The notes under the pieces were generated by a model, which made no database searches, had not been told where the DNA came from, and saw only the letters and a list, made by a program, of their open reading frames with translations. A stretch of DNA of 64,000 bases, from NCBI GenBank assembly GCA_944377415.1, contig CALWEW010000003.1, positions 3,753-67,752 on the forward strand. The letters run 5' to 3'. Below are positions 23,701-55,741 of this stretch, piece by piece. This DNA is from an uncultured Clostridia bacterium. GTDB lineage: Bacteria > Bacillota > Clostridia > Christensenellales > UBA1242. A program made the position numbers and the translations under genes. Within the stretch, counting starts at the first letter, position 1. Each line of letters begins with the position of its first letter.

Positions 23701-26700
23701 AAATTCATCAATGCAATTCAGCGGTTATGTAACAAATGGCGCAAACTTTACAGGCTCAATTTCGCACACAGCGGACTCTAACCTTGATATATATGCGGGG
23801 GGCATATACGGTTTTGTTCAAAACAGACTTAATATGTCTAGTAGTACGGCACTTCCTGTTGGTCAAGCACGACTTATTCTAAATGCAATGCATTCAAGTG
23901 GAAGCATAACAGTTAATACAGCCGCAGTTAGAATTTATGGCGGTGGCTTAATCGGTAGAGCGGCTCAAGGCGTAATGAATAGCGGGACTTATGAGGAACT
24001 ATCTGCTCCTAATAACATTTTACGAATTTCGAGCAGTGCATTTACAGGGAGTCTAGATGTAACAAATAATCAATCAAGCAGTGAGTCTTCTATGTGGCTT
24101 GGTGGAATTGTGGGGAACTCACAACTCGCAGTTTATGATTCATTATCGAATGGAACAATATTCTTTAATGCAGAAAATGCGCTTTCGCTTTTTGCTGGCG
24201 GAATTGCAGGTTCTACAAATACTGATATTGGATACTGTATCGCGCTTTCATCTGTGCAATACGATATGCCTTCAACTTCGGCTAATACTAGTGTGAATGC
24301 TATCCGTGGTATTCAAGACAATGAAAATGCTCGCATTGTATACTCGTATTATTCGGGCGAACTTTGTGGCATACTTGACTTGTTTGGAACAAATTTAACC
24401 GCGATGCAAATGCTAGATGCTACAAACTTTAGAAATAATAACACAAATATCTTGACAAACTTCACTTATGCGACCAGAACAGATGCAGACGGTAACACAG
24501 TTCAAGCATCATTTATGTATCCTACTGAAGTTGAGGCTTATTTAGACCTAACAAGTGGCAGCGCGAATGTTCCTGTATTTGTTGAAAACATGTCTATGCT
24601 TCAAGGACAACTGTTAAACGAAGAAACACCGAACAAGATTATTTACATTAACACTGAACAAATTGATGTAGCGGGCATTCCAAATATTGAAATTGCAAAT
24701 GCTCGTAAAATAGTAGGTAATGGCGTAGTTATATCTGTTGCTGATACTACTACAAGTGGTAGGTCGTCAAGCGGTGTATTCGTTGATATTCCTCGAAATG
24801 TTGTCGTTTCTGGCATAAATGTTGAATACGCAAAAGTCTTAATTAATGCAAGTAGTGATTTTGACTTTGGTGGACTTGCTGGAAATAACTTTGGTTCAAT
24901 TTACGGGGTTAGTGTAAGGGGGGTAGCAAGTGAGTCGATACAAAATACAACGGCAAGCGGGTTTGCGAACCTTACAAGCAGGTACACGGACAACTTTACA
25001 GGCCTTACAAATAATGATGATGCGCAAATATTCCTGAATACATCGGGACAATATGCAATTAACTTTGGTGGCGTGGTCGGACTAAATCGTGGTAGTATAG
25101 TAGGAGTTTTAAGTGATATAAATATTTACTCAAACGGTGGCTCTGTAAGTTTGGGTGGGATTGCTGGAAGTTCGATAAATTCTGTCATGAATAATAACAT
25201 GACACAAGGCAGAATTATAGTCGACAGCATGACAAATGAAACCTTTATTGGTGGAATTGCTGGTGTTGCGACAAATTCATTTATATCATCAACTTTTGCA
25301 AATAATAATATTACAGTATTTACCGTTGTTAGTGGCAATGTTGGGCTTGCGTTTGGTAGTTTTAGTGGACTTAGTAGTGGAATTGTAGTTAATAGCGATG
25401 TGAGTGGAAATTTGTCAATTGGCGACACAAATTCTTACTACACAAATGCCTTAACTACTAGTCAATATTTAACCGCATCAAGTATTAATAGCATTATAAA
25501 CAATACGGCAAATTACTTTAATAGTAGCATTTGGACTATCGGCGATAATACACAAAATTACGGTTATCCATACCTAAATGTATTAAATGTAGATTTCGCT
25601 ACTGGTGATGGAACGCAGGCGAATCCGTATAAATTAAGAGAAGGTTCCGAATTTATTAGGCTTACACAAAATACAGCATCAGGAAGATACTTTACACTTA
25701 CTCGCGATGTTATGATTTCTACCGACACTTTGAGCCTAACTTCAAGCGGAACATTGCGTGCGACAGAATTTAATGGTGGCGGATATGTAGCAGTTATTGA
25801 AGGGCTGATAACTCCGCAGTCGAGTGGTGGCACTGTTTATGCAAGTCTATTTAACAACATTTCTAATAGGTCGACAGTTCAGTCGTTTGGTGTTGTTATA
25901 AATGAAAGTGCTATAATAAATGAAAATGGCACAGGTTATACAATCTATTTTGGTGGACTTGCAGGTACGAATAACGGAACAATCACTAATTGTGCGGTTC
26001 AAAGTCTTGGTAACATTACTTTAAACTCGCTTCCTAATTCGCGTTTAGGTGGATTGGTTGGACAGAATACAAACATTATAGAAAACAGTTGGGCAGATGT
26101 TGACTTCGTTGCAAATGACGGTTTTATCGGCGGACTTGTTGGACTGTTAGGCACTAATACGAGTGCTGATAGCGAAAGCACCGCGGTAATACGCAATAGT
26201 TTTGCAAGCGGAGATTTGAATATCACTCAAAATACAGCAAACTCAAACTATACATCAACGGCTGTTGGTGGGTTAGTAGGTGTTGCAAATGCCGAAAGTG
26301 GTACAGGCAGTATTAGAGATTCATATGTCTATGGGGCAAAGATTAATGTTTCGTATAGAGATACAGAAATCTCTTATGTTGGTGCTTTAATAGGTAATGC
26401 AATCAAATTTAGTACTTACAGAACTTATGCGTATGTGTTTACTCCTAGTGCTCAAGATACTAACTATGCGGGGGCAGGCGTTTATACAGACCTAGCAATG
26501 ACAGGTAATGTAATTGAGGGCGCGTTTGACTCGACAAGTTGGGTATCTGTATGGCTGGGACCTTATGTAGATGTTCCAGTAAGACAGGAAGCCAACGACC
26601 TTTGTGCTGTGATTAATATTAGTACATTGCGTACAACGGCAATAGGTACTGGTGTTTACTCAGAATGGATAACATCTGCATGGACACGAAACCCAGGTGT

Positions 26701-28512: not shown

Positions 28513-31500
28513 TTAACGAACTTTCATGCGTGTACGCATAATGATGAACATTATAACAAGTCCAACTACAACGACACAAGCAACTACAATTAAAATAATT
28601 GCAGCGGTGTTCAGTGGAACATCAATTGTGAGCCTATTACTTGAAAGCACATTACCACTAGCAGACTGAATTTGTACTATATATGTTCCTGCTTCGTTAT
28701 AATTAAAGTTTTGTGGTTCGACAACGGTACCATTTTCAGCATTAATCGTATATACAATTTGACCGTTTACTACAATATAGCAGTCACCAACACGCTCGTA
28801 AATGCTGGCAGGGTTAATTGTAATTGTAAAGCCTGAAGTACTTGATGACCCCCAATCGCGTGAACAACTGATTGTAGGAATTTCATTGTTTATCCAAAAG
28901 TCGAAAGTATAATTTTGACTTGGGTTATAGCCTGTTCCAGCATATCTAACAGTGATTGAATATCTGCCTACACCGTAGTTATCAGGGTCAATGTATATAG
29001 AGTGAATTGTACTGTTTGTTCCTCGCACTTCGTCAGTAATATCAGTTCCCGAACGAACAACTGAAATAATTTCGTAGCCTGTCATGGCTGTGAATTCATA
29101 ACTTGTCAGTGCTTCATTAGGGGATAGAATTGTAAATTGATAAGTTGAAACCAAATCAGCAGAATTTGTACCAACTACCGAGCGAATTGAGCCGCGCATT
29201 GAAACTGTGTAGACACCAGGTTCTGTAAAGATATAGTGTCCGTCTGTTGCTGCGAGTGTGTACGCCTCATTATTTCTTGTTATGCTTACTTCTAGAGAGT
29301 CATATTCACTCAAATCACCCGAGAAAGTAGTAGGAATGTATAGGTCAACATCATTAGAGAATGTTGCATACTGAATAGGAGCAAGGTCGTTTACATAATA
29401 AACGACTTCATTTAATAGATTTAGGGTAAATTCTGTATAATTTGCACCAAAGTATTGATTTTGGCCTACAGCATCATGGATTCGAATAGTATAAATACCT
29501 GACTGCGTAAGTAAGATATTTCCGCTTGTATAAGTGCCAACTAACACATTGTTGTACCATAATTCGAGGGAATAGAAGTCTGCGTAAGTATTTTCTATGC
29601 CTGCTGTTGTAATACTACTGTCATAGTAGGTGGTTTCCCATGTCAGAGTTGCTGTCGCGTTTTCGGTATCGGTCAGGCGTTTGTAAATGTTTCTAGAATT
29701 TGAAGTAGGGGTTTCGCCGTTAATTCTAAAATTAGTTGCCGATGAAATATTTGAAGTAGGAATACGAGTTACCGCAAAGTATGTGCTAATAACATGAGTT
29801 GTAGTTCCATAAACATTGCAAATTCGTGTGTTTCCGAACTCGTCAACCACACGATAGTTTAATCCTTTATCTCTATTTCTTACAATTTCAATATTTCTAT
29901 CCCAGTCACTATCAGAACTAAGGAAGAAGTATTGAGGCATTGACATATTTGATGTCGTTCCGCCTGTGGTCATAGCATAATTATATGGTACAGAATGTGC
30001 AGTAAGTTGAGTTGTGTTACCTTGTGAATCAAGCTGATATACTCCATACACTGAAACTTCATATGAGCGAATTGTAAATACACGCGTTCCATTTGAGTAC
30101 ACACCCATTGAGTTATAAAGTCTTACGGTGTATACACCTTCTTCACTTACGGTAGTAGGCGAGGTGATTTCTGTTTCTGTGCCGTCAGGACTAACAAGTG
30201 TTACATACGGATTAAATAGAGAGTTTGTTTGAGACCACGAAATCATAACAGGTCTTGATGTAACATCGTTAATTAGTGGTGAGCCCGCAGTATCTGTTAT
30301 TGAAATAGTAGGGAAATGTGTGTAAATCACAAATTCGAAGATTGTTGCGGTGTCTGTATAATTGTCAACTGCGATATGTACAAGATAGTGAATATTTTGT
30401 GTGGCATTGAATGTTAAGTTTGTTACGCCGAGTGACATGTCATCAATAGCCAAATCAAAGTATGGTGAATCGGTTGGCAAATCGCTCACCGTTCCATCTT
30501 GATTTGAGTTCGTGTAGAGCAATGTGTTTGTATCAAGGTCGGTTATGCTTAAATTAATTCGCAGAGCGCTAGACTGATACCTAAACAATACATCATTTGA
30601 AGTGTAAGTATAAAGAGTTCCACCATATTCATATTCCATAGTTCCGCCTGAGTATGTAAGTTCACGAACTACACTTGTGTCAGTTGGATATGAATAGGTA
30701 TAACTTCTACCAAAATTATCTGTAAACTCAAAGCGGTAGGTTACATTGCTAGCAAGCCTAAAAGTGTAACCGTTTATGATTGAATCATCAGTAATATCAC
30801 TTGCGCTGTTAGGTAAAGGCTTTAGATTAGCATCATAAGATTGTAAACTACCATCACGATAAACACGGAAGTCCTCGAGCCATGTTGAAGGAATACTGCG
30901 TGTGTCAGGAAGCCTAATTGTGAATGTATTGTCGTTGTTGACAGTTATCAAACTTAGGAAACTTTCTTCGCTGTCGATAAGTAATGCGCCAGCTGTGTTG
31001 ATATAAATCACGATGTCATTATCGCTGTTTAATCTGCTATGAATTGTAAGTTGAATGCGACAACCTTGAGAATTGGAGTAAGTAAGAGCCGTTTCTTGAA
31101 TGAAGTTATTTATGTTTTGAATGATAGTGTCGATGTTGTTAACTGTTACCCCACTGAATGTAGGTAGGTTGGTAAGCGTGTCATCAGGAGCGTAATAGTA
31201 TGTTTCGCGCTCTTGTTGACCCATAAGGTTGCGAATTGTGAAAGTTGTCCACAAGTCGCTACTTTCAATTAAGTCAAATCTAAAATCGCCACTATTAAAC
31301 TCAATTATATCTTTGTTATTGGGGTAGTACTGCTGGTTGTTATAGTAAACAGTTGTCCCAGAAGCCGTAGTGGTGTAGAAGTCGATGCTGTCGTCATTAA
31401 TTGTAGCATGCATCGTAGAATCTCCACCTGTAACAAAAATTGTGTAAACTCGCATGTTACCTGCGGTGTCTTGTTCAATAATGTCGTAATAACCAGGCTC

Positions 31501-34500
31501 TGTGATTGTTGTACCAGTCGCTTCGTTTATACCTCCACGATAAACGGCAAGGTGGTAGTCAGGGTTAGTGGGTGAGAATATGTTTTCTGCATTTTCGTCA
31601 TAACCAGGTTGACCTTGAACTACTGTTTGTTGTAGGTAATTACCAGTATAATTCTCATGGCGGAAGTAGTAGTATTCAAGGCTCGATTCATACTCATTTA
31701 AGTAGTCAAGTGTAAAGCTTGAAACCGCGAATGCATATGACTTTAAGAAAGTAACATTATCGTTATCTATATTTTCAATTAAATAATCAGTAAAGTTAGT
31801 TCCGCTTGTGTTGAGTGAGTTTAGGTAGACATCGTTTTCAATTAGGTTTACAAGGTTTTGGTAGGGTGATGTGTTGTCTACATAAAGTGATTGTGTTGTT
31901 TCATAATAAATCGACTGATTAGACATGTTCGGTGCATCATAATCATCGGGAGACATTGCGATGTAGTGTACATTTACAGTGTACTCGACATCGACGAGTT
32001 TATTTTGATAAAGTGATGTATTTTCATAGTCTGCACGAGGTAGAAGAATATAATAGTTATATACTCCATCTACGCGCATTTTGTAAAATTCGCTATCGCT
32101 AAGGTTAGTTGATTCGAGCGCTGCATTTATAATAGCATCAAGTTCAGCCTGCGTTTCGCGGTAAATAAATGTTACATTTTCAATTTCGTCAGGGTCGGAA
32201 AGTAGTTCTTCATATTCGTCAGCATCACAGGTAAGTAAAATTGGGTTAGAGAAACTGTAACTTGTAGTTGTACCAGAATTTTCATTTCCGTCTGCATCAA
32301 TTTTGGGATTTGATTTTGTGTAAATTGTTTTGTATACTAGCACATCATTAAAGGCAAGTTGGGCTGTGTATACATCAGTTGGGTCAGACCAACTTATGCG
32401 CACTTTGTCTGCACCAGTTACATTTGATTGAGAAATATCAATGTCTGTAAATGTTGTATCACCACTTTGGAAGTTAAAATCTGGGCTAATTCCTGTGAGT
32501 TCAAAGTTAAATATTGTATAATTTGGTGATAAGTCTATTAAATCATTTCCATATGTGAGTTCCTCAAAATATGTTGCATCGCCATTCATTACACCCGTTG
32601 TGTTTGCTAGGTCAAAGAGAATAACTCGATATTTCCCAACATTTGTAAATGCGTGTTTTAGATTGTCAAGAGGGTAGCAATCGTATGCTTCGCTTGCATT
32701 GTTTCTATATATATTAGAATAGAAACGCTGGTTATAGAAAGTGTAAATTCCTGTGTTTGAGCGTATAAATGTTTGCACAACTACTTGAACTCGCGAACTA
32801 TTTTGATAAGCATCGAAGATTTCATTTAGCAAAGTTGCGGCTTGACTTTCGTCAATTTCATCGCCAACAGGATAGTAATATTTGTCGTAAACACTGTTAC
32901 CGTTATCGGCTGCCCAAGTGCTTAAGTTTATACTTGCGGGTAAAATGTTACTATCAATCACCATGTTAGTTGGTTCACTAGCTGGGTCATTGGTCGCATC
33001 AAATGTTAATACATCACGGAAGATATCACTATTTGATGTACGACTAAATTGATTAAATGTAACTCCACCATAATCAGGATAACCTTCATACTCGCCCTTG
33101 TCATAACCAAAGCCTATTGAAATATCACTTCCGTAGTTGCTTGTATCGGTAGGAATAATAGGGTTGCGGTCAAGGTAGTAAGTGTAAGTTCTTACCAAAG
33201 TATCGCCACCTGCTTCTGCCGAATTTTCGTCAAAACCGTCGTGATATGTTCTAATGATTTCGTACATACCTGCCGAACTTGCAGCTCCGCCGTACGACTG
33301 AACATAGTCAAGAGGCACTAGTACACTAGTTTGGTAGTGAGTAGATGTAACGCTTCCGCTTGCTTCGACAGTAAATATTTGATAGTCAGACTCGCCGTCG
33401 CTATCATAAATAACTGTATCTTCATAAGAGTCAGAGTAGGGGTAGTTTTCGTTATCTTTATTATACGAGAAAGGATAGAAGCGAAGGACTATGCTGTCTA
33501 TTGTAAAGTATTCGTCTGCGACAGTCCAACTAAAAGTTACATAACGGCGATTTGTCGAGTATGTGTTTGGTACGACTTGACTGTCAGTAACTTCGTCTTC
33601 TGTACGAATGCTTTCAACTAATACAGGACCATCTGCGTTAGGTTCAAACGAGTCATAACTGCGTAAAGTACCTTGTGAGCGGTCAAGATTTACATCAACG
33701 GTAAAATTACCATTGTAATTGCGCATTTCATCATACACACGAATTGTATAACTTAGCGAATTGCTGTTGGCAAATTCGTGAATAGGGTGATTTAAATTAT
33801 CTACTACACCTTCTGGGCGAATTTGTGTTTGATGCGTGTCAGTTGAATCTGGTTTTGGGTCAACTGAAATAGTTCCCCACCAGTTTTTAGGAGTTCCGTC
33901 CGTGTCGATGTATGGTGTTATCGTTTCTGTTGTGCCATCTGAGATAGAGAACTCAACGCTATCAATAGGGGTAATATAATTATTTGCACTAATTGCAGAG
34001 TTTAGGGCATTTTTAACAATCTCATCTGCTGTGAAAGTGTTATTTGAAAGTGTCCATGTGTAGTCGCCGTTTACGAAGTCCAAAATGTCATTAATTTGAT
34101 TATCGGTAGATGATAGTTGATTAATAGAAATTGATTTGTGTGTGCCCCAGTAGAAGTCTGTGTCGTCGGTAATAATATTTACATATGAAGTTTGTTCTGG
34201 GTCTTGCAAAATTTGTGTTTCTGTGTCATCTAAAATCGTTATGAAAATCGCTGTGTTGCCCGCAGCATCGGTGAGAAGTAGCACTGCAAATTGAGGACTT
34301 GATATAATTTGTGAGGTGGGTAGGTTTGTGAATACATCAGTTATATCAACTTTATTGTAATTTATTGCGGGAGTAAAACCTCCAAAGGAAGAATCTGTGG
34401 GCATCAACACATTTTGATTTGAAGCCGCCATGCTTTTCATTTGTTCGATATAACTACTGTCTAATGAGAAGCTTCCATCTGTCTGAATACTTGAGTAAAC

Positions 34501-36885
34501 ATATCGAGCGGTGATTTCAGCTCCACTTGCTTTGTCGTCCCAAGTCCATGCAAACGGGGTGTTAGTTGCAAGAACATAATCGCTAGCGTTATCTGTAAGG
34601 CGAGATATTACAATTGCATCTCCGTTTTCGTCCGCGGCAACATGTCTACCTTCAATTTCAACTGCTGTTATGTTTGTAATAGGGGCAGTATCAATAACAA
34701 AATGATGGTTTACAAACGCTTCGGGAGAGTCTTCTCTAAAAACCTGAATGTAGTAGTTGCCGTCAAGTCCAGAGCGTCCATTTACACTTAAATTAGTACC
34801 ATAGAGCATTGTCGGTGTGCCGTTTGTAACATCAAAATAATCGCCAACACTATTTTGCTGGTAAACAAGGGCATTTATGTCGCCTTGACCGATTAGATTA
34901 TTACTCCAATCATAAGCATAATATCTTGCAGTAATTTCAGCATCAAAGGGGCCGACATTTTTCCATGAAACATAAACGAAGTCGTTTGTATAGTCGTTCA
35001 TGTTTAGTGCAGTTGCCGATGCATCTTTAATTCCAGGGTAGTCAGAAGTTGTCTTTGCACTAATTTCTATTTGTGGGGTATCATTAGTAATTTCGAAGTA
35101 GAATATTTGATGTGCATACTGATAAGTCATGCCGTCATTTGCATGACCTGATTCATAAATTATGTTCTCATAAGTTAAGTAAACGAGATATGTACCTGCA
35201 TTTTGGAATTGAAGGTTACGAGTGTAATTAGACACCGTAATATTGCCTAAAGTGTCTCGGTAAGCATACCAACTTACATTTGTTGCTTGAAGCCTACCGT
35301 AAAACTCAAAACTTACGGGAGGCATGTTAGTACTAGCATGAATTACTTTTGTTGAGTTTAAGTTGAATACTCCGCCTTCGCTTTTATCCAGAAAGAGATT
35401 TTCAATAACTCCAGTTGCACTAACATCGGTTGATGTCAAGCTGTCATTAGTAATTACGCTGTTATTTTCACTAGCGTTGGTATTTAAAAAGCTGAAATCT
35501 GCAGTGTAAATACTTTCAGGTGGGGTTGGGTCGCTAGCAGAAATTGTAGTGATTTCTGTGTTGCTTGTCAAAAAGTCATGAGCGTAAACAACACTTGGAG
35601 TAGTCGATGGGACAGTACTCATAGAATTATAAGCATAAGTATTGTCATAAAGTGATGCGGTTGTTGAGCGTGAATCTGCGTAATTCGCAGTATAACCATT
35701 TATTACAAGTCTTTCACTTTTTAATAGGTCTTCATTTGATGTTACAACTTCGCCGCTGGCAAGAGCATAAGTCGCAACTCCGTTGTTGTCTGACGGGTTT
35801 CCAGTACGCAAACGCGCAGTTTTGTTTATTACATATTCACCTGCTTCATCAAATTGAACTCGTAAAGTGTAATGGTCATTATTACCTTTTTCAATACGAT
35901 ATGTGCGAGAGTTTGAAAGACCTGTGTTTGTTGAAGTTGTTACAATCAATTCACCATATTCGCCACTGCCAGAGTCACGGGCAGTGAAATTAAGTTCTAC
36001 GGTTTCAACATAATTATAAAGAGTGCGAGTGTAGGTAATTTGATACTTTTCAGGATTGTAATATAGTTGGGGATAATATAATTCACCTTTTGTAGAGCGG
36101 GTGATTAGGCTCAAATTTTCATCGTAAATAGTTGTGTATTCGTTGTTGTAGTTAAAGTAGTGGAGCATACCATACTCTTGATTAGACAAAGTAAATTTCT
36201 CGGTGTCGTTAAGTGATGGCATTTCAAGAGGAACAGAATAGGTCTTTTGAGTGGTTAGGTAAAAGGTGAAAGTAAAGTTGTATTGTTGACCTGTTTCTCT
36301 ATCCATGTACGGAATTTCGATGTCATATCTGCCTTCGGGGTCAGAAACTTCGGTATCAACTCCCGTATCGTAGCGGGTGATGTAGTCGCTGTTTAGATTG
36401 TCTTCTGCGACTTCGTCAGGTGTAAGCCCGTGAAGATAAAGGATAGTTTCAAGAGTGTCGCCATCTTCGTTTATATAGTTGTCTTGAATTAACTGACCAT
36501 TAAATCTAACATTTACATTTGTAAAGTATAAACCACTTGCGTTGTTTGGACCTCCAAAGTAAATATAAATAGCCTCTCTGCCGACTTGCTCGATACCTTC
36601 TTCATCTTGAAGTGTTGCTTGCTCGGTGTTTAACATGACAAATTGTCCGTTTTCAATGCTTTCTGCGGAACTAACAATGTGCCTAATTTCTGTAGGGCTA
36701 TATTCTCCATCATCAGCGTAAGCATCAGGTAAAAAAACCTTTTCAATATACACTGTTGGAGTAGAAACGGCACTAGCACTTTTTTGTTTTGCAAGTAAGG
36801 ATACACCGAGCATGCTAAAAGCCAGCAAGGCAATAATACTTACCACAGCTAAAACTGTGTAGTTTCCGAATTTCCTATTATTCAT
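28513..36885 (-). CDS. giant (2790 aa) envelope protein: N-terminal signal/anchor, about 2700 aa of Ig/PKD-like beta-sandwich repeats, C-terminal TM helix with a basic tail
   Basis: Uninterrupted 8.4 kb ORF with a GGGGGA ribosome-binding site. N-terminal hydrophobic segment YTVLAVVSIIALLAFSMLGVSLLA followed by SASA. The motif GxYxhxhxDxxGN recurs, for example PGYYDIIEQDTAGN, LLLTDAAGNTAIF, GIYTIRIHDAVGQ, EGVYTVRLYNSMG and AGTYIVQIQSASGN. The C-terminus is VPLNTAAIILIVVACVVVVGLVIMFIIMRTRMKVR. Confidence 0.9.
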   Translation of the reverse strand: MNNRKFGNYTVLAVVSIIALLAFSMLGVSLLAKQKSASAVSTPTVYIEKVFLPDAYADDGEYSPTEIRHIVSSAESIENGQFVMLNTEQATLQDEEGIEQVGREAIYIYFGGPNNASGLYFTNVNVRFNGQLIQDNYINEDGDTLETILYLHGLTPDEVAEDNLNSDYITRYDTGVDTEVSDPEGRYDIEIPYMDRETGQQYNFTFTFYLTTQKTYSVPLEMPSLNDTEKFTLSNQEYGMLHYFNYNNEYTTIYDENLSLITRSTKGELYYPQLYYNPEKYQITYTRTLYNYVETVELNFTARDSGSGEYGELIVTTSTNTGLSNSRTYRIEKGNNDHYTLRVQFDEAGEYVINKTARLRTGNPSDNNGVATYALASGEVVTSNEDLLKSERLVINGYTANYADSRSTTASLYDNTYAYNSMSTVPSTTPSVVYAHDFLTSNTEITTISASDPTPPESIYTADFSFLNTNASENNSVITNDSLTSTDVSATGVIENLFLDKSEGGVFNLNSTKVIHASTNMPPVSFEFYGRLQATNVSWYAYRDTLGNITVSNYTRNLQFQNAGTYLVYLTYENIIYESGHANDGMTYQYAHQIFYFEITNDTPQIEISAKTTSDYPGIKDASATALNMNDYTNDFVYVSWKNVGPFDAEITARYYAYDWSNNLIGQGDINALVYQQNSVGDYFDVTNGTPTMLYGTNLSVNGRSGLDGNYYIQVFREDSPEAFVNHHFVIDTAPITNITAVEIEGRHVAADENGDAIVISRLTDNASDYVLATNTPFAWTWDDKASGAEITARYVYSSIQTDGSFSLDSSYIEQMKSMAASNQNVLMPTDSSFGGFTPAINYNKVDITDVFTNLPTSQIISSPQFAVLLLTDAAGNTAIFITILDDTETQILQDPEQTSYVNIITDDTDFYWGTHKSISINQLSSTDNQINDILDFVNGDYTWTLSNNTFTADEIVKNALNSAISANNYITPIDSVEFSISDGTTETITPYIDTDGTPKNWWGTISVDPKPDSTDTHQTQIRPEGVVDNLNHPIHEFANSNSLSYTIRVYDEMRNYNGNFTVDVNLDRSQGTLRSYDSFEPNADGPVLVESIRTEDEVTDSQVVPNTYSTNRRYVTFSWTVADEYFTIDSIVLRFYPFSYNKDNENYPYSDSYEDTVIYDSDGESDYQIFTVEASGSVTSTHYQTSVLVPLDYVQSYGGAASSAGMYEIIRTYHDGFDENSAEAGGDTLVRTYTYYLDRNPIIPTDTSNYGSDISIGFGYDKGEYEGYPDYGGVTFNQFSRTSNSDIFRDVLTFDATNDPASEPTNMVIDSNILPASINLSTWAADNGNSVYDKYYYPVGDEIDESQAATLLNEIFDAYQNSSRVQVVVQTFIRSNTGIYTFYNQRFYSNIYRNNASEAYDCYPLDNLKHAFTNVGKYRVILFDLANTTGVMNGDATYFEELTYGNDLIDLSPNYTIFNFELTGISPDFNFQSGDTTFTDIDISQSNVTGADKVRISWSDPTDVYTAQLAFNDVLVYKTIYTKSNPKIDADGNENSGTTTSYSFSNPILLTCDADEYEELLSDPDEIENVTFIYRETQAELDAIINAALESTNLSDSEFYKMRVDGVYNYYILLPRADYENTSLYQNKLVDVEYTVNVHYIAMSPDDYDAPNMSNQSIYYETTQSLYVDNTSPYQNLVNLIENDVYLNSLNTSGTNFTDYLIENIDNDNVTFLKSYAFAVSSFTLDYLNEYESSLEYYYFRHENYTGNYLQQTVVQGQPGYDENAENIFSPTNPDYHLAVYRGGINEATGTTITEPGYYDIIEQDTAGNMRVYTIFVTGGDSTMHATINDDSIDFYTTTASGTTVYYNNQQYYPNNKDIIEFNSGDFRFDLIESSDLWTTFTIRNLMGQQERETYYYAPDDTLTNLPTFSGVTVNNIDTIIQNINNFIQETALTYSNSQGCRIQLTIHSRLNSDNDIVIYINTAGALLIDSEESFLSLITVNNDNTFTIRLPDTRSIPSTWLEDFRVYRDGSLQSYDANLKPLPNSASDITDDSIINGYTFRLASNVTYRFEFTDNFGRSYTYSYPTDTSVVRELTYSGGTMEYEYGGTLYTYTSNDVLFRYQSSALRINLSITDLDTNTLLYTNSNQDGTVSDLPTDSPYFDLAIDDMSLGVTNLTFNATQNIHYLVHIAVDNYTDTATIFEFVIYTHFPTISITDTAGSPLINDVTSRPVMISWSQTNSLFNPYVTLVSPDGTETEITSPTTVSEEGVYTVRLYNSMGVYSNGTRVFTIRSYEVSVYGVYQLDSQGNTTQLTAHSVPYNYAMTTGGTTSNMSMPQYFFLSSDSDWDRNIEIVRNRDKGLNYRVVDEFGNTRICNVYGTTTHVISTYFAVTRIPTSNISSATNFRINGETPTSNSRNIYKRLTDTENATATLTWETTYYDSSITTAGIENTYADFYSLELWYNNVLVGTYTSGNILLTQSGIYTIRIHDAVGQNQYFGANYTEFTLNLLNEVVYYVNDLAPIQYATFSNDVDLYIPTTFSGDLSEYDSLEVSITRNNEAYTLAATDGHYIFTEPGVYTVSMRGSIRSVVGTNSADLVSTYQFTILSPNEALTSYEFTAMTGYEIISVVRSGTDITDEVRGTNSTIHSIYIDPDNYGVGRYSITVRYAGTGYNPSQNYTFDFWINNEIPTISCSRDWGSSSTSGFTITINPASIYERVGDCYIVVNGQIVYTINAENGTVVEPQNFNYNEAGTYIVQIQSASGNVLSSNRLTIDVPLNTAAIILIVVACVVVVGLVIMFIIMRTRMKVR

Positions 36886-37046: not shown

Positions 37047-37072
37047 CAAAAAAGCGGGGTAACCGCTTTTTT
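37047..37072 (-). terminator. rho-independent terminator after the coupling-protein gene
   Basis: AAAAGCGG-GGTA-ACCGCTTTT hairpin (37050-37070) flanked by A and T runs, abutting the stop at 37071-37073. Confidence 0.6.
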
Positions 37073-39035
37073 AAAAGTTAAAGTTGTTATTGCTTAAAAC
37101 AAGTTTGTTTCGCTGTCTAATGTCATAGTAAATCTGGTCTTCGTTTATGAAGCGAGGAATAACATAATCATCATTCATAGGCTTCATATTATAAACATTG
37201 CTAACTTTGTATGCGAATGTAAATTCACTTTTTAAGGCTTTTTCCTTAAACATTGACACAATCATTTCACCTTTCTTTAAGTAGCCGAGTTCGTCAGGTG
37301 TAATGAGTGCACGACTGACACGCTGAACATTAGTCGACTTTGTTGTGTCTTGTTTTGACTTGCTTTCACTTGTTGATTTTGCTTCGACACTCGTTTGTCC
37401 GCATCGAGCGCTAAATTCTTCTTTTGTTTTTTGGTCTTCTGTACCTAAGTATACATGTACATTACAGTTTGATTTGATAACATCTGCCGCTGCTTCACCA
37501 TATTTGATTTCGACCTGTCTGTAACTTTGTACGACGAGCATGAGCGCGATTCCACGGCTACGACCGACAGTTACAATACTTTCAAATCTAGGAATTTTTG
37601 GCATGTTTGCAAACTCGTCAAGAATAAAATAAACATGGCGAGGAAGTTCTAGTTTCGGCGTTCGACTTGCGACTTCAACAAGGGTTTTGTACATTTGCAA
37701 TACGCACATTTGTGCTATAGGGTGGCGCGTTTCTTTTTCGTCGGGAACCTTGATAAATAGCGCTGTTGGTTTGTCTGCAAAGTGTTCAAAATCAATTTCG
37801 TCTGCACTAGTAGCAAAACATACACCGCTATCAGCAAATACATTAACAGCATTTGATACCATACCAAAGTAAGAGCGAGTTGTACCAGGTGCATTGTTTA
37901 CAATAGGACCTGCAAGGGTAGTTGCGTTTGACATGGGTCCACGCCCTTCAAAATATTTTTGCAGTGAGCCAAATTGTCTGTCGGGGTCGGCATCGCGCAC
38001 ATTACATATCTTATATAAATTAAAGAAATTATATTTCTCTGCTGTCATATTAAGACGCGGGTCGGCGGAGTCTTCGAGCATGGCTAGCATAGTGCCTAGG
38101 ATAAAGTCCTTTGCGCCTTGTTGCCAGCTTGCATCATTAGTACCCTCTGATACAGGACTTAGGGACATCGCAATGTCATTTAGGTCTTCAAACGCCGAGT
38201 CAATTAGACCTTTTCTCGTGGCGGTTAACTGGCTTTCTATTGAGTCGCGGTTCGGAAAAGCGACTCCCTCAAACTCGTACCACTCGTTATCATACACTGG
38301 GGAAATGACACGAAGTCCACAGTCAGCGGGGTTTTCGTTGCGGTGGACAATTACTTCTTTTCTCAGATTTAGCGCGCGTTGATAGTTTTTATAAGGTTTG
38401 TACATCGGGTTCCAGCGCGTACTTGAATACGGATTTCGCAGGTCAAAAGTAACTAGGGTGTAGCCCTCGTCTTTTAACTTGTTGCCGTGCATATTATATA
38501 ATTCACCCTTAACGTCCATGATTACCAAACTTGGTTTTGTTGAGGTGCTTGCCAAAATTTGAATAGTAGGGGAAATATAACCAGCAGTTTTACCACTACC
38601 AGTAGTACCTACAATCATAGTGTGCCAAACTTCGTGTAGAAGATTTACCTTTACATTGTTTCCAACCGCTTGCGCGCGAATAGGCACACCGTCTTTGTGA
38701 CTATGAAGGTCGCGAAAAAAACAACCATCGTACTTTTTATTAAGTTCTTGTTCTGTAAGCCATTCAGAATCGAAAAACTGCTCCGTTGGCTTTTTACCGT
38801 CTTTTTTCTTTTTATCTGATGACTTAAACATAGATTTGCCATTTGCTGCTTGCACTAAAATGTAAAGAATGAAGGCAACCATTATTAGAGCCCAAATACC
38901 CCACGAATAACCGCCCATAATTCCTTCAACAGTAATTGAGCCTGTTTCTAAAAATGAGCCGATTATACACGATATGCCGTAACCCAAAATAGCAACGACA
39001 ACAAAAGCCCAGAAATACTTCCAAAACTTATTCAT
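37071..39035 (-). CDS. type IV coupling protein (VirD4/TraG family ATPase)
   Basis: Two N-terminal TM helices. Walker A GTTGSGKT (nt 38586-38609). Walker B region YFILDEFANMPKIP. The segment GRSRGIALMLVVQSYRQVEIKYG is typical of TraG/VirD4. Confidence 0.85.
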   Translation of the reverse strand: MNKFWKYFWAFVVVAILGYGISCIIGSFLETGSITVEGIMGGYSWGIWALIMVAFILYILVQAANGKSMFKSSDKKKKDGKKPTEQFFDSEWLTEQELNKKYDGCFFRDLHSHKDGVPIRAQAVGNNVKVNLLHEVWHTMIVGTTGSGKTAGYISPTIQILASTSTKPSLVIMDVKGELYNMHGNKLKDEGYTLVTFDLRNPYSSTRWNPMYKPYKNYQRALNLRKEVIVHRNENPADCGLRVISPVYDNEWYEFEGVAFPNRDSIESQLTATRKGLIDSAFEDLNDIAMSLSPVSEGTNDASWQQGAKDFILGTMLAMLEDSADPRLNMTAEKYNFFNLYKICNVRDADPDRQFGSLQKYFEGRGPMSNATTLAGPIVNNAPGTTRSYFGMVSNAVNVFADSGVCFATSADEIDFEHFADKPTALFIKVPDEKETRHPIAQMCVLQMYKTLVEVASRTPKLELPRHVYFILDEFANMPKIPRFESIVTVGRSRGIALMLVVQSYRQVEIKYGEAAADVIKSNCNVHVYLGTEDQKTKEEFSARCGQTSVEAKSTSESKSKQDTTKSTNVQRVSRALITPDELGYLKKGEMIVSMFKEKALKSEFTFAYKVSNVYNMKPMNDDYVIPRFINEDQIYYDIRQRNKLVLSNNNFNF

Positions 39036-45180: not shown

Positions 45181-47913
45181 ATGAGCGTTAAATATATTCC
45201 GCGTAGAACAAAAGTTAAAATGGAGTTTTGGAAAGGTATTACTATTGCTGATATTGTTTTTATCGCAATAGGTATTGCTGTTTTGTTGCTCCTTATATTT
45301 AGTCAAGGTATCTCTACCGACTTAAAAATCTATTTAAGTGTTGCTTGGGTAGCTATAATTGGTTCGCTATTTTTACCCATTGCAGATAACAAGCGCCTTT
45401 ATGCAACGCTTGGTATATTATTCAAATTTTTTGCCTATAAGAAAAAATACTCAAAGCACCCGATGCGTGGGCATGTTGATATTGGTGAGATTATTCCTTA
45501 TAAAGCGATTGCGAATGATATGATTGACTTTAAGGAATATTTTGCAGCCGCTCTTGAAATAAGGCCAATTGAGTTTGGATTATTAAATAGCGAAAAACAG
45601 GAAGGTGTAATTCGTACTGTAGCAAACGCTTTGCGATTAGTTGCTGTTGGACAGCAGGTTAGTATTATAAAATCTTCTAAACCTATGGTTATGGATGGAT
45701 ATATTTATAACGAAGACCGCAAGTTTGACTCGGTAATTGAGTTGTCAAGTGATGGCGAAATGACCGAGGACGAAGTAAATGCCCGTAGCGAAATTTTCGA
45801 AGCGCGTATGCAGCACTTGCGCGACCTTGCGAATATGGAAAAAACCTTCATGGACCATTTCTACATTGTGGTATACGACAAAGACCGTGAAGGATTGCGA
45901 ACGACCATAGAAGGTATGGTAAGCGAATTGGCTAAGGGTATAGTGCCTCTTATGTCGTGGAGATTAAAAGACAATGACCTTGCTATTTTCCTAAAATCAA
46001 CTTTTGGCGAAGATTTTAATGAGTCCGAACTAGGACTTCACTCAATTGCTGAATATGCTGATTGGACAATTCCCGAAGAGGTTGTGTTTAAAACGAGTAA
46101 AACAATTATTGATGGACAAGCGTACACCAACTTTTCAATTACAGACTATCCCGTGTCAGTGCCAAATGCGTGGGCATGGCCGTTCTTTAATTTAGGTAGC
46201 ACAAAGGTAGTTGTCAACCTTACTCCTTTGCAAAAAGACAAATCCGAACGCACAATCGACCGTTCAATCGTCGAACTTGAAGGGCGTATGCGTTCAACAT
46301 TTAAGTCTAGTAAACAAATTGATTTGCAGGCACAACATGAAACATTGACTGACTTGCTTAGTGACTTAAAAATCGGTAATGAAGACCTTTTTGATGTGCA
46401 TATCAACATTATGTGTGCCGAGAGTGTAAAAAAGGAAGTTCGTGCAATATTAAAGCAAAACGGCTTTAAATATAGTGAAATGTTCGGTAGGCAAGTAGAG
46501 GCATTTATTAATACAAATATTAGTAGAATAGACAATAACATAGAGAGCAGCCGTAATATTCAAACAACTTCAATTGCAGCGATGTTTCCATTTATTTCGA
46601 ACACCCTACAAGATAGTAAAGGGTTCTATGTAGGCTATAACTCGTATCCTGTTTTTGTTGACTTTTTCGTCAACATGGACAAAGACAACCCACTGCATGA
46701 CGAGCGCGTAAACGCGAACATGATTGTTATAGGTAAGTCTGGTTCGGGTAAGTCGTACGCAACAAAGACACTGCTTGCAAATCTTGCCGCCGATAATACG
46801 CGTATATTTATTCTTGACCCCGAAAAAGAATATACTGACTTAACTAAAAATTTGCATGGAAAGTATATTGATGTAGGTAGTTCGGTACATGGAATTTTGA
46901 ATCCCTTCCATGTAATGACGAATTTATCTGATGATGACGAAGAAGAAATCGTAATCACTGGTGAGGAAACAGAAGAGGAACTTGTTGAAATTGAGCGCAA
47001 AAAAGCGCTAGCCGCTAAAAAGTCTACGGACTCGTTCAACATGCACTTGCAGTTTTTGGAAGAGTATTTTCGTATTATTTTTGACGGCATGAGCGGTGAT
47101 GCGTTTGAGATTTTGAACTCGCTTGTTGTGCAAATTTACAATGATAAGCGCATCGATAGTTCGACAGATTTGTCTACTTTAAATCCCGAAGATTATCCGA
47201 TTTTTGATGACCTTTATAATTTGATAAATAAACGAATTGAAGCCGAAACTGACGAATACATTAGGCGTAATTTGCAAATTTTGCAGGTGTATGTTCAAAA
47301 ATTCGCAACAGGTGGGCGCAACTCAAAGTTGTGGAATGGCCCGACGAGCATTGAAACCGATGAAAACCTTGTCTGCTTTAACTTCCAGTCGCTTCTTTCT
47401 AACCGTAACATGACTGTTGCAAGTGCACAAATGTTACTTGTATTTAAATATCTTGACAACGAGATTTTAAAGAACAAGGACTTTAACGAAAAGTATAAGA
47501 CGAACCGAAAAATAATTGTAACGGTTGATGAGGCACACTTGTTCATTAACCCGAAATATCCCGTTGCCCTTGAATTTATGGCGCAAATGGCTAAGCGTAT
47601 TCGTAAATATAATGGTATGCAAATTGTAATTACGCAGAATATTAAGGACTTTGTCGGTAGTAAAGATATTGAGCGTCAGGCGAGTGCGGTTATTAACGCG
47701 AGTCAGTATTCGATGATTTTCTCGCTTTCGCCAAACGACATGACCGACCTTGTAAACTTGTACCGCAACGCTGGTGAGATTAACAAGGACGAACAAGATA
47801 CAATCGTTACTGCTGGTCGTGGTCAGTGTTTCTTCATTGCGAGTCCGTATAGCCGTACTACATTCATTATTGAAGCAAATCCAGCAATTAAGAAGATAGC
47901 AGGATTAAAATAG
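45181..47913 (+). CDS. VirB4-family T4SS ATPase with an N-terminal VirB3-like two-TM extension
   Basis: Two TM helices in the first 70 aa. Walker A IGKSGSGKSYATKT (GKSGSGKS is nt 46732-46755). Walker B IIVTVDEAHLF. The segment QIVITQNIKDF is present. The 910-aa size is typical of VirB4/TraE/PrgJ-class proteins. Confidence 0.9.
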   Translation: MSVKYIPRRTKVKMEFWKGITIADIVFIAIGIAVLLLLIFSQGISTDLKIYLSVAWVAIIGSLFLPIADNKRLYATLGILFKFFAYKKKYSKHPMRGHVDIGEIIPYKAIANDMIDFKEYFAAALEIRPIEFGLLNSEKQEGVIRTVANALRLVAVGQQVSIIKSSKPMVMDGYIYNEDRKFDSVIELSSDGEMTEDEVNARSEIFEARMQHLRDLANMEKTFMDHFYIVVYDKDREGLRTTIEGMVSELAKGIVPLMSWRLKDNDLAIFLKSTFGEDFNESELGLHSIAEYADWTIPEEVVFKTSKTIIDGQAYTNFSITDYPVSVPNAWAWPFFNLGSTKVVVNLTPLQKDKSERTIDRSIVELEGRMRSTFKSSKQIDLQAQHETLTDLLSDLKIGNEDLFDVHINIMCAESVKKEVRAILKQNGFKYSEMFGRQVEAFINTNISRIDNNIESSRNIQTTSIAAMFPFISNTLQDSKGFYVGYNSYPVFVDFFVNMDKDNPLHDERVNANMIVIGKSGSGKSYATKTLLANLAADNTRIFILDPEKEYTDLTKNLHGKYIDVGSSVHGILNPFHVMTNLSDDDEEEIVITGEETEEELVEIERKKALAAKKSTDSFNMHLQFLEEYFRIIFDGMSGDAFEILNSLVVQIYNDKRIDSSTDLSTLNPEDYPIFDDLYNLINKRIEAETDEYIRRNLQILQVYVQKFATGGRNSKLWNGPTSIETDENLVCFNFQSLLSNRNMTVASAQMLLVFKYLDNEILKNKDFNEKYKTNRKIIVTVDEAHLFINPKYPVALEFMAQMAKRIRKYNGMQIVITQNIKDFVGSKDIERQASAVINASQYSMIFSLSPNDMTDLVNLYRNAGEINKDEQDTIVTAGRGQCFFIASPYSRTTFIIEANPAIKKIAGLK

Positions 47914-53489: not shown

Positions 53490-54194
53490 ATGCAAAAAAT
53501 TCAAGGCAAAGTGCGAAAAGCGCTCGACCAGTACAAAATGATTGAAAACGGCGACAAAATAGCAATCGGATTAAGTGGGGGCAAAGATAGTCTAGTACTC
53601 ACAAAGGCTCTTGCGAGCCTTAGGCGTTATTATGATAAGTCTTTTGATTTGGTTGCTATTACGGTAGATATGCACGACGGCAAGTCTGATTTTTCCGCCA
53701 TTAGCGAGTTTTGCGCTGAACTAGGTGTAAGGCATGAAATAGTGCCTTCACAAATTTATGACATTTTGTTTAATGTTAGGCATGAGAACAATCCTTGTAG
53801 CCTTTGCGCTAGACTTCGTCGTGCGATTCTTGCTGAAAGCGCAAAAAAATTCGGGTGCAATAAACTCGCGCTCGGGCACCATGCAAATGATTTAATTGAA
53901 ACCTTTTTCCTTTCGCTTTTTTACGAAAGCAGGCTGTCCACATTTTTGCCAGTAACGCCGATGGACAGAACGGGGATAACGGTAATTCGCCCGATGCTTT
54001 TAGTATTTGAAAAGGATACAACTCGTGCAGCGCGTGATTTGCCAGTATTTCACAACGATTGCCCCGCAAATAAAAACACACAACGAGAGTTTATAAAGAA
54101 TTTGCTACAAAGTATTTCACCCGATATTCATCAAGTACACGAGCATATTTTGAGTGCGTTAACACATCCAGAAAGAAATCATTTAATAAAATAA
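53490..54194 (+). CDS. ttcA: PP-loop ATPase, TtcA-family tRNA thiolation enzyme
   Basis: SGGKDS PP-loop (IAIGLSGGKDSLVL). A CSLC motif and a further conserved Cys (DCPANK) are present. The 234-aa size is typical of the family. Confidence 0.75.
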   Translation: MQKIQGKVRKALDQYKMIENGDKIAIGLSGGKDSLVLTKALASLRRYYDKSFDLVAITVDMHDGKSDFSAISEFCAELGVRHEIVPSQIYDILFNVRHENNPCSLCARLRRAILAESAKKFGCNKLALGHHANDLIETFFLSLFYESRLSTFLPVTPMDRTGITVIRPMLLVFEKDTTRAARDLPVFHNDCPANKNTQREFIKNLLQSISPDIHQVHEHILSALTHPERNHLIK

Positions 54195-54217
54195 AACAGA
54201 GCGCGTGCTCTGTTTTT
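54193..54217. terminator. bidirectional terminator between convergent genes
   Basis: AAACAGAGC-GCGT-GCTCTGTTT forms a perfect hairpin with A and T runs on both sides. Confidence 0.7.
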
Positions 54218-55235
54218 AATATCTTAAATAAGGGTTTCCTGTTTTTTGCTCGGGAATGTTTATAGGCTCTTTTATCATTTCAGCATGCTTTGAATATTCG
54301 TTAAACTCCATGTAGTCGAATTTGGCAATATCTTCGGCGCTTTTCGTTTTAAGCATTTTTTTCATATTTTGAATTTTGGCGATTTCCAAAACGCTTTCAA
54401 TGCTACAATTTTCGCGTATGATAGTCATGTCGGCTGAAATATTGTAAAATGCCATGTATTCTTCTAAACACTTATCAAATGGTGCACCTTCTAATTCGGG
54501 TAAGTGAATAGGGCAAGAGTGTTCGCGTTTGTCGCGGTCTTCCGTTGTAAATCGTGGACGGTGCACATGAGGAAAGGGTACGGTTTCTGGCATCATTTCT
54601 GTGTGCTTTTCTTTCGGTTGGTATTTTTGAATTCGATTTTTATTCTTTAAATGTGCCTTTTTTACTTTGTGTGCAAGTTCTTGTTTGTTGTTATCAAGAC
54701 GACTTATGAAATAAAAACCGTCCTCGTAACCACCTACAATTGCGTAAAGATTGAAAGAAAAGTGCTCGGGTTGGTCTACATCGCGACAAACACTAAATCG
54801 ATATAAAACTGGCAATGCGCGGTCTCGTTGAGTGTCCAAGGTTGGAGCCACGGAAAAATAGTGTGTTTTGCTATAATGATGCCCATTATAGCTGTAGTTA
54901 AAGTGGAATGTGTGAAAAATATATTTAGGTGCAGCAGCCATAATGTTATATTGCTTTGGTGTGCAGTAAATGTTGTATTTTTGCATTCTCGCGCGCTCTA
55001 AGAGCGGAAGATTTGAGATGAGCAAATTCTTTTTTAATTGAATTGCATCAATTGGAAAAGCGCGACTGCGATTTTCTTTTTTTTGTTTGCTGACCTTTGG
55101 TGAGTAAATGTGGTAAACGCGTCCGTAAGGGAAATTTTCTTGCTGAAATTCTATATCTTGTCTAGATGCTAGCGGAGACGGGTGGTAGATACGAGTGAGA
55201 GATAATTTTTCTAACTCTGATGAATTTTCTTCCAT
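54216..55235 (-). CDS. hypothetical protein (339 aa)
   Basis: Long ORF, His/Lys/Tyr-rich, with no motif recognised. Confidence 0.5.
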   Translation of the reverse strand: MEENSSELEKLSLTRIYHPSPLASRQDIEFQQENFPYGRVYHIYSPKVSKQKKENRSRAFPIDAIQLKKNLLISNLPLLERARMQKYNIYCTPKQYNIMAAAPKYIFHTFHFNYSYNGHHYSKTHYFSVAPTLDTQRDRALPVLYRFSVCRDVDQPEHFSFNLYAIVGGYEDGFYFISRLDNNKQELAHKVKKAHLKNKNRIQKYQPKEKHTEMMPETVPFPHVHRPRFTTEDRDKREHSCPIHLPELEGAPFDKCLEEYMAFYNISADMTIIRENCSIESVLEIAKIQNMKKMLKTKSAEDIAKFDYMEFNEYSKHAEMIKEPINIPEQKTGNPYLRY

Positions 55236-55352: not shown

Positions 55353-55376
55353 AGAAAAAAGCACCTAAAGGGTGCT
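55353..55376 (-). terminator. terminator following the duplicated tRNA 3' fragment
   Basis: Minus strand reads GCACC-CUUUA-GGUGC followed by UUUUUU. Confidence 0.6.
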
Positions 55377-55381
55377 TTTAC

Positions 55382-55405
55382 TTTTGGTGCGGCCAAGAGG
55401 ACTTG
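55382..55405 (-). repeat. 24-bp direct repeat duplicating the 3' end of tRNA-Leu (T-loop/T-stem 3' strand, acceptor 3' strand, CCA, plus AAAA)
   Basis: TTTTGGTGCGGCCAAGAGGACTTG at 55382-55405 is identical to 55598-55621. No matching tRNA 5' half lies upstream of this copy. Confidence 0.85.
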
Positions 55406-55570
55406 TAACAAGCGCACAAAGTGCTGCGCAGTATCAATAGTGTAGGCATAAGTAGTAACAATAAAATGGCAGAGCCATATTGCCGAGCGTGCGTCCACGA
55501 AAGGGGAGGTTGCACGGGGGCTGTGCCCGTGCAGCGCTTTTTTGAAAGCGCGCAAGTCCTCTTGAAAGCA

Positions 55571-55594
55571 AAACAAAAACACCCTTTCGGGTGC
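55571..55594 (-). terminator. terminator of tRNA-Leu
   Basis: Minus strand reads CACCC-GAAA-GGGTG followed by TTTTTGTTTT, beginning 7 nt after the CCA end. Confidence 0.7.
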
Positions 55595-55600
55595 GTGTTT

Positions 55601-55688
55601 TGGTGCGGCCAAGAGGACTTGAACCTCCACGGCTTTAAAAGCCACAAGATCCTTAGTCTTGTGCGTCTGCCAATTCCGCCATAGCCGC
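55601..55688 (-). tRNA. tRNA-Leu, anticodon AAG (class II, long variable arm, encoded CCA)
   Basis: Hand-folded as follows. Acceptor GCGGCUA/UGGCCGC. D arm GCG-GAAUUGGCAGA-CGC. Anticodon stem CAAGA/UCUUG with loop CUAAGGA (anticodon nt 55652-55654). Variable stem GGCUU/AAGCC. T arm GGAGG-UUCAAGU-CCUCU. 3' end ACCA. Confidence 0.9.
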
Positions 55689-55712: not shown

Positions 55713-55741
55713 AGTATATCACATGAAAAAAGAAAAATCAA
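55713..55741 (-). promoter_or_regulatory. sigmaA promoter of tRNA-Leu
   Basis: Minus strand reads TTGATT, a 17-nt spacer ending in TGA, then TATACT, about 25 nt upstream of the mature 5' end. Confidence 0.5.

Follow-up and report, generated by a model that had tools for sequence, protein, structure and literature searches.

Wobble inosine on tRNAs other than tRNA-Arg is a step that separates eukaryotic from bacterial decoding, and the lactic acid bacteria are the sole current bacterial model for how the substrate range of TadA widens and how codon usage responds. The locus described here raises the question of whether another bacterial lineage encodes a functional tRNA-Leu with the anticodon AAG and edits its A34 to inosine. 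tRNA-Leu(AAG) is the commonest bacterial A34 tRNA other than tRNA-Arg, and the tRNA type itself is already known and experimentally established in the Lactobacillales: it carries I34 in Oenococcus oeni (cited in PMC11472039 and PMC8072771), in Streptococcus pyogenes, where it is also edited in vitro by the S. pyogenes TadA (PMC11472039), and likewise in oral Streptococcus and in S. mutans (PMC13249217). The first-pass annotation of this DNA had stated that additional A34 tRNAs, Leu(AAG) included, occur in a few lineages with wider TadA specificity, and these three papers bear it out. In a 2026 survey the bacterial Leu(AAG) genes lie almost all in the class Bacilli, with the families of the Lactobacillales having either AAG or GAG, never both, and the Bacillales having GAG only (PMC13249217). 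Clostridia go unmentioned in a 2026 preprint built on 4047 bacterial genomes; the genera that it names are Lactobacillus, Lactococcus and Streptococcus.

The window, by which we mean the whole 64 kb stretch of DNA that was analysed (~38% GC), contains the following gene and anticodon:

55601..55688, minus strand: tRNA-Leu(AAG) gene, class II, CCA encoded (ARAGORN, Rfam RF00005, cloverleaf pairing over seven homologues)
55652..55654 (loop 55650-55656), minus strand: anticodon A34 A35 G36 (ARAGORN, Rfam, sequence reading)

ARAGORN calls this gene as the single tRNA in the window, a tRNA-Leu with the anticodon aag, and the full RF00005 model of Rfam matches the same interval with 52.2 bits (gathering score 29; E = 2.5e-08). 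The minus-strand gene reads GCGGCUAUGGCGGAAUUGGCAGACGCACAAGACUAAGGAUCUUGUGGCUUUUAAAGCCGUGGAGGUUCAAGUCCUCUUGGCCGCACCA. Its acceptor stem is 7 bp long and its anticodon stem (CAAGA/UCUUG; the anticodon arm is ACAAGACUAAGGAUCUUGU) 5 bp; it further has the long variable arm GGCUUUUAAAGCC, G18 G19 in the D-loop, the T-loop UUCAAGU and the discriminator A73 before the encoded CCA. The long variable arm, A73, G18 G19 and the T-loop are leucine identity elements. Its anticodon loop is C32 U33 A34 A35 G36 G37 A38, which appears as CTT on the plus strand at 55652-55654. This confirms that 55601-55688 is a bacterial class II tRNA-Leu whose cloverleaf is recognised by tRNA models. The first-pass annotation had folded a canonical class II tRNA-Leu cloverleaf here by hand and had read the anticodon AAG at nt 55652-55654 without naming a strand; ARAGORN, one of the two programs that it had proposed, run over all 64 kb, assigns the same fold and the same anticodon, Rfam agrees, and the strand is minus.

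To place the gene among its relatives, a genome collection with one genome per species was scanned with a 23-nt anticodon arm in which A34 was fixed. Six species-level genomes matched and tRNA-Leu(aag) is present in all six, although the invariance of A34 and of the anticodon arm among these six is partly by construction, as the pattern fixed both. To offset this, a metagenome scan was run with position 34 free, and it returned two more A34 copies on two contigs, one of them flanked by ppx like the window. The only non-A34 matches in that scan are Leu(UAG) tRNAs of unrelated organisms with ~64% GC, and no G34 version of the window tRNA body was found in it. A34 is thus present in nine distinct homologous sequences (the window, six genomes and two metagenome contigs). 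The DNA flanking the gene in the six relatives is 65-73% identical to the window and keeps the gene order, which runs TtcA-family gene, 339-aa ORF, tRNA-Leu(AAG), ppx, mreB and minD, with a small ferredoxin in addition in the window organism. Across seven aligned homologues 99.4% of the cells of the cloverleaf are paired, compared with 30-56% in slid-partner controls, and four pairs have changed on both sides (acceptor 5-68, acceptor 7-66, one in the variable arm and one in the T-stem).

The gene lies between a putative promoter and a putative terminator:

55713..55741, minus strand: sigma-70-like promoter TTGATT, 17 nt, TG-n-TATACT (consensus scan; function presumed from the match)
55579..55594, minus strand: terminator-like hairpin GCACCCGAAAGGGTGT plus T run, directly 3' of the tRNA CCA (consensus scan)

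The promoter-like site ends 24 nt upstream of position 1 of the tRNA, and similar -35 and extended -10 boxes stand at the same aligned position in L003, L004, L006, L007, L008, L010 and L012 (locus handles as used throughout). These consensus matches suggest that tRNA-Leu(AAG) is expressed as a separate transcript. Because A34, the fold and the promoter-like boxes persist while the flanks have diverged to 65-73% identity, we conclude that tRNA-Leu(AAG) is in all probability a functional, vertically inherited gene.

The window organism is uncultured and known from metagenome assemblies, and the genomes that carry the gene, the six relatives being MAGs, are AT-rich (34-43% GC). By the titles of their records, three of the six relatives are an uncultured Clostridia bacterium, one an uncultured Clostridiales bacterium (a rumen RUG genome) and two an uncultured Christensenella sp.; Christensenella belongs to the Bacillota, class Clostridia, order Christensenellales. 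The host lineage is thus labelled, with the class as given in the submitters' record titles, as uncultured gut and rumen Clostridia, some under the name Christensenella, and the same submitters' labels place it outside the class Bacilli, order Lactobacillales. A Firmicute host, as guessed in the first pass, fits these labels. Any novelty would lie in a conserved Leu(AAG) in an uncultured Clostridia lineage whose host is not a lactic acid bacterium, which appears new: a full-text literature search found no earlier report of Leu(AAG) in Christensenella or Clostridia, though the A34 maps of Rafels-Ybern may list one.

The tRNA closely resembles its counterparts in the Lactobacillales (Oenococcus oeni, Streptococcus pyogenes, S. 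mutans, S. pneumoniae, Lactobacillus and Lactococcus), being likewise class II with A34 A35 G36 G37 A38, a Y-U-A-A-G-G-A loop and an AT-rich Bacillota host. It differs from them in that their hosts are Bacilli while its own is labelled Clostridia/Christensenella, and in that I34 has been demonstrated on theirs as a TadA product, in vivo as well as in vitro (PMC11472039, PMC13249217), whereas the window tRNA is known from its gene. The acceptor stem also starts differently, with GCGGGGA in S. pyogenes Leu(AAG) (from primer ends only) and GCGGCUA or GCGGUCA in the window lineage, which argues, if thinly, against recent transfer of an identical gene. Because the Bacillales have GAG only and the known switch to A34 lies inside the Lactobacillales (PMC13249217), an independent second origin of Leu(AAG) in Clostridia, apart from the Lactobacillales, is what these data most simply imply.

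If the tRNA is functional, its A34 could be read either as inosine or as adenosine. In Streptococcus and Oenococcus TadA converts A34 of tRNA-Leu(AAG) to I34; the same conversion would operate here, with CUG being read by another Leu tRNA, and we consider it probable that this is a functional, vertically inherited, separately transcribed tRNA-Leu whose encoded A34 is edited to I34 by TadA. The loop CUAAGGA, on its 5-bp stem, fits the S. pyogenes TadA consensus YUAMGRA at 7/7 positions, a consensus that accommodates two substrates, Arg(ACG) and Leu(AAG), differing at positions 35 and 37 (PMC11472039). It fails the canonical E. coli-type consensus YUACGAA, having A35 and G37 instead of C35 and A37. 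The same comparison holds for tRNA-Arg(ACG), the universal bacterial I34 tRNA, which TadA edits to ICG: it shares with the window tRNA the 7-nt loop, the 5-bp stem, A34, U33, G36 and A38, but has C35 where the window tRNA has A35, and its E. coli-type consensus has A37 where the window tRNA has G37.

How far the enzyme would have to change can be gauged from E. coli TadA. In vitro it does not efficiently modify S. pyogenes tRNA-Leu(AAG) (PMC11472039), and it no longer recognised AAG in an orthologous tRNA once position 32, 37 or 38 was changed; therefore I34 on the window tRNA would need a changed enzyme. In the loop context of tRNA-Arg2, AAG and AUG are the only two non-ACG anticodons reported as recognised by E. 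coli TadA, and because AAG is among them a small shift in TadA specificity would suffice. The enzyme itself was sought in 8 kb per relative and ~80 kb of the window organism. The deaminase motif of tadA matches the window once, within the TtcA-like gene; a tblastn search of the window and the retrieved loci with E. coli TadA gave no match, and the called genes of further flanks (~6.8 kb left of the window and a short contig on its right) include no deaminase-family gene and no tadA.

Codon usage, which the first-pass annotation had proposed as a check on I34 decoding of CUU, CUC and CUA, gave a divided answer. Among the Leu codons, the 26 long ORFs of the window use CUU most (UUA 0.27, UUG 0.20, CUU 0.30, CUC 0.08, CUA 0.12, CUG 0.03). 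Set beside the pattern of the Lactobacillales, in which CUU and CUC are raised at the cost of UUA, CUU stands close to UUA and CUC is low. The Arg box is a known I34 box: in the same ORFs CGU (209), CGC (194) and CGA (71) are used and CGG (13) is nearly absent, which suggests an active ICG/TadA system in the window organism, but the CUU:CUC ratio of 3.9:1 resembles that of Val and Ile and is unlike the CGU:CGC ratio of 1.1:1. The Leu codon signature of the window organism is not Arg-like. In L007 and L008, which have higher GC, CUC makes up 0.20 of the Leu codons and is at least as frequent as CUU, and this usage suggests I34 rather than unmodified A34, at small counts (130-210 Leu codons per relative). 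The relatives vary widely at these counts, UUA reaching a share of 0.50 of the Leu codons in L004.

This codon pattern bears on the possibility that the tRNA is functional with A34 left unmodified. It would then read CUU best, might also read the rest of the CUN box weakly through four-way wobble, and would have further Leu tRNAs working beside it. The 3.9-fold excess of CUU over CUC in the window would fit such decoding, as would the AT-rich genomes, since A34 tRNAs are retained in other AT-rich lineages too, and there is precedent: unmodified A34 is enough for B. subtilis lacking TadA to decode every CGN codon (PMC10454642), and of the four A34 tRNAs in O. oeni two escape editing (PMC8072771). 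Unmodified A34 tRNAs (Mycoplasma tRNA-Thr(AGU), the Thr and Ser tRNAs of O. oeni, and B. subtilis tRNA-Arg(ACG) in a yaaJ deletion) share with the window tRNA an A34 in a four-codon box and an AT-rich Bacillota host, and four-way wobble is possible in principle for it as for them. These cases, however, concern other amino acids or an engineered mutant, whereas Leu(AAG) is edited wherever it was tested, in two lineages (PMC11472039, PMC13249217). The loop that matches the TadA consensus at every position and the CUC usage of L007 and L008 also speak against unmodified A34, which has been described as unstable in decoding and generally avoided. We regard this reading as possible but doubtful, and lean towards I34 decoding by the window tRNA, in which both the deamination and the set of codons read are predicted from the gene and its likeness to edited tRNAs.

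It could also be asked whether the gene is real and whether it belongs to the chromosome. One base change turns GAG, UAG or CAG into AAG, and other bacteria have the same anticodon arm with U34, so that the gene might be a decayed pseudogene, a fault of sequencing or assembly, or a GAG or UAG tRNA that has recently picked up a neutral mutation; a correction of A34 to U had been named in the first pass as a refuting outcome. This reading is contradicted by eight further distinct homologues with A34, whose flanks have diverged so far, by stems that stay paired through compensatory changes, by promoter-like boxes conserved in position together with the terminator-like hairpin on the window copy, and by the identical tRNA gene in two other assemblies of the same organism (L001 and L002; ENA ERZ28614525 and Logan ERR4096348), which may share reads. 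We consider error or decay extremely improbable, and rejected it on the nine A34 homologues and the compensatory stem changes. Slightly more is to be said for tRNA-Leu(AAG) being the cargo of, or brought by, a mobile element. At 37-48 kb the window encodes conjugation proteins, a VirD4/TraG-like coupling protein and a VirB4-like ATPase, and the 3' end of the tRNA is directly repeated 216 nt downstream, as at the attL/attR-type sites of integrative elements. Moreover, the contig of an unrelated provirus opens with a tRNA-Leu(CAG) that shares this 3' end and stands beside two serine recombinases, so such ends serve elsewhere as integration sites. The tRNA, however, sits between core genes (TtcA-like, ppx, mreB, minD) in an order that is the same in relatives without a match to the conjugation region, the duplicated stretch is nt 68-88 only, with the anticodon outside it, and unlike at att sites only ~195 bp lie between the repeats, with no integrase there. 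Core-gene synteny in the relatives, the short repeat spacing and the lack of an integrase led us to reject the mobile-element reading, which is highly unlikely, and to retain a resident tRNA-Leu(AAG), probably edited to I34.

The DNA downstream of the tRNA has an organisation of its own:

55382..55405, minus strand: mismatch-free second copy, in direct orientation, of the 3'-terminal tRNA nt 68-88 (CAAGTCCTCTTGGCCGCACCA) together with three trailer bases (repeat search, 0 expected by chance)
55357..55379, strand unassigned: second terminator-like hairpin, placed after the direct repeat just as the first one is after the tRNA; the consensus scan has it on the plus strand, and its sequence was read on the minus strand
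55553..55564, strand unassigned: 12-nt inverted copy of tRNA nt 68-79, reading CAAGAGGACTTG on the minus strand and complementing the T-loop/T-stem 3' strand
55492..55511, minus strand: conserved block AACCTCCCCTTTCGTGGACG inside the repeat unit, found once in the window and once in L003
Repeat regions: window 55357-55621 (minus strand); L003 4200-4461; L006 2938-3246; L007 4114-4287; L008 6563-6977; L005 ~30-250 nt past the tRNA

The last 21 nt of tRNA-Leu(AAG), CAAGTCCTCTTGGCCGCACCA, recur exactly at 55405-55385 on the same strand, a duplication that the first-pass annotation had overlooked, and because the repeat covers only nt 68-88 it leaves the anticodon untouched. The inverted copy at 55553-55564, which has an 11/12 equivalent in L003, can pair with the tRNA 3' end or with its direct repeat. 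The first 9 nt of the conserved block complement tRNA nt 59-67 at 8/9 positions (9/9 in L003); the block is absent from viral contigs and single-copy in the window and in L003, with no sign of a multi-copy mobile element.

Tandem units of 140-220 nt stand directly downstream of tRNA-Leu(AAG) in 6/9 homologues, and they include copies of the tRNA 3' end, direct ones in the window and L003 and inverted ones in L006-L008. L003 has the same layout as the window, with a 59-nt repeat of 98% identity and a period of 203 nt; the units of L006, L007 and L008, with periods of 170, 139 and 218 nt, contain GACTCGCACCAAAG, in which the 3' end of the tRNA and its trailer appear as reverse complement; and L005 has two near-identical terminator segments ~177 nt apart. 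In the window the 182-nt stretch between the repeats has a folding z of -4.8 and, compared with L003, keeps the closing helix and has five compensatory pairs (from two sequences only). By eye, the two hairpins before the block AACCUCC.CUU.CGUGGACG have the same shape in the window and in L003 with a wholly different sequence. The structure of the downstream repeat unit thus appears conserved, as judged from two sequences. Rfam at relaxed thresholds assigned no family, T-box included, to the elements downstream of the tRNA.

The DNA between the window repeats (~195 bp) is non-coding and holds no integrase or element-sized DNA, and the next gene past the repeats has, by eye, its own promoter-like site and is syntenic in the relatives. 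Possible readings of the repeats are scars of repeated site-specific integration into the 3' end of the tRNA, a hotspot of recombination or inversion, or a functional 3'-trailer RNA; a simple att remnant is disfavoured because of the missing integrase, the ~195 bp spacing and the apparently conserved structure. Functional tRNA 3' trailers do exist, E. coli 3'ETS-leuZ being an example; as there, the structured stretch of the window lies in the trailer of a Leu tRNA, while the window region has tandem hairpin units. A bolder reading would join a second origin of Leu-I34 in a Christensenella-like Clostridia clade, with its own TadA adaptation, to a lineage-specific, tRNA-linked, repeated and structured trailer, containing copies or complements of the tRNA 3' end, that acts as a new RNA (in processing, as a sponge or as a mimic) or as a site of recombination or inversion, and this combination we hold to be an outside chance.

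If the inosine reading is confirmed, a phylogenetically separate lineage with a conserved Leu(AAG) would provide an independent natural replicate of the change known from lactic acid bacteria. It could then be asked whether TadA changed in the same way (e.g. by the C-terminal extension of the S. pyogenes enzyme), whether the loss of Leu(GAG) was repeated, and whether UUA gave way to CUU and CUC. The Clostridia gene is also a warning that surveys of cultured genomes (GtRNAdb) undercount A34 tRNAs.

Several observations concern the neighbourhood of the gene. The TtcA-family gene (53490-54194) is two genes away from the tRNA, which has C32, and resembles tRNA 2-thiocytidine-32 synthetase, with a score that falls short of the equivalog cutoff; it is syntenic in at least four relatives (L003, L006, L007 and L008). 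E. coli has s2C32 on tRNA-Arg(ICG), and a link between the TtcA-family gene and tRNA-Leu(AAG) is speculative. Between the two lies the 339-aa ORF (54216-55235, minus strand), just past the repeat region, with the promoter-like TTGCTT-17-TATAAT noted by eye; it has no Pfam or NCBIfam match and is conserved and syntenic in L003, L006, L007 and L008. Farther away, conjugation/type IV secretion genes occupy 26962-51441 of the window, among them the VirD4/TraG-like coupling protein (37071-39035) and the VirB4-like ATPase (45181-47913), and are adjoined by giant ORFs of 5009 aa (11777-26806) and 2790 aa (28513-36885), with large ORFs without family match around them. This region may be an integrated conjugative element; neither an integrase nor the borders of an element were recognised in it.

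In the two other assemblies of the same organism, contigs break inside the repeat region (~55517 and ~55538): the ENA scaffolds 411 and 2433 meet at 55516/55518, and the Logan contig stops at 55538. Strain heterogeneity at the repeats, or a problem in assembling them, may lie behind this. In the rumen lineage L004 a tRNA-Lys(CTT) follows tRNA-Leu(AAG) after 27 nt, in place of repeat units (4284-4475), and the sequence of L010 ends within a stretch that matches this tRNA-Lys(CTT). In L007 (4189-4506) a segment of ~320 bp, which takes in the tRNA with its promoter and some of the downstream unit, is inverted relative to the flanking genes, as compared with L006, L008, L003 and the window. Finally, a tRNA-Leu(CAG) ending in the same 21 nt opens the unrelated viral or proviral IMG/VR contig L014 (36-3280); two large serine recombinase genes come after it, and the arrangement looks like a prophage border at a Leu tRNA.
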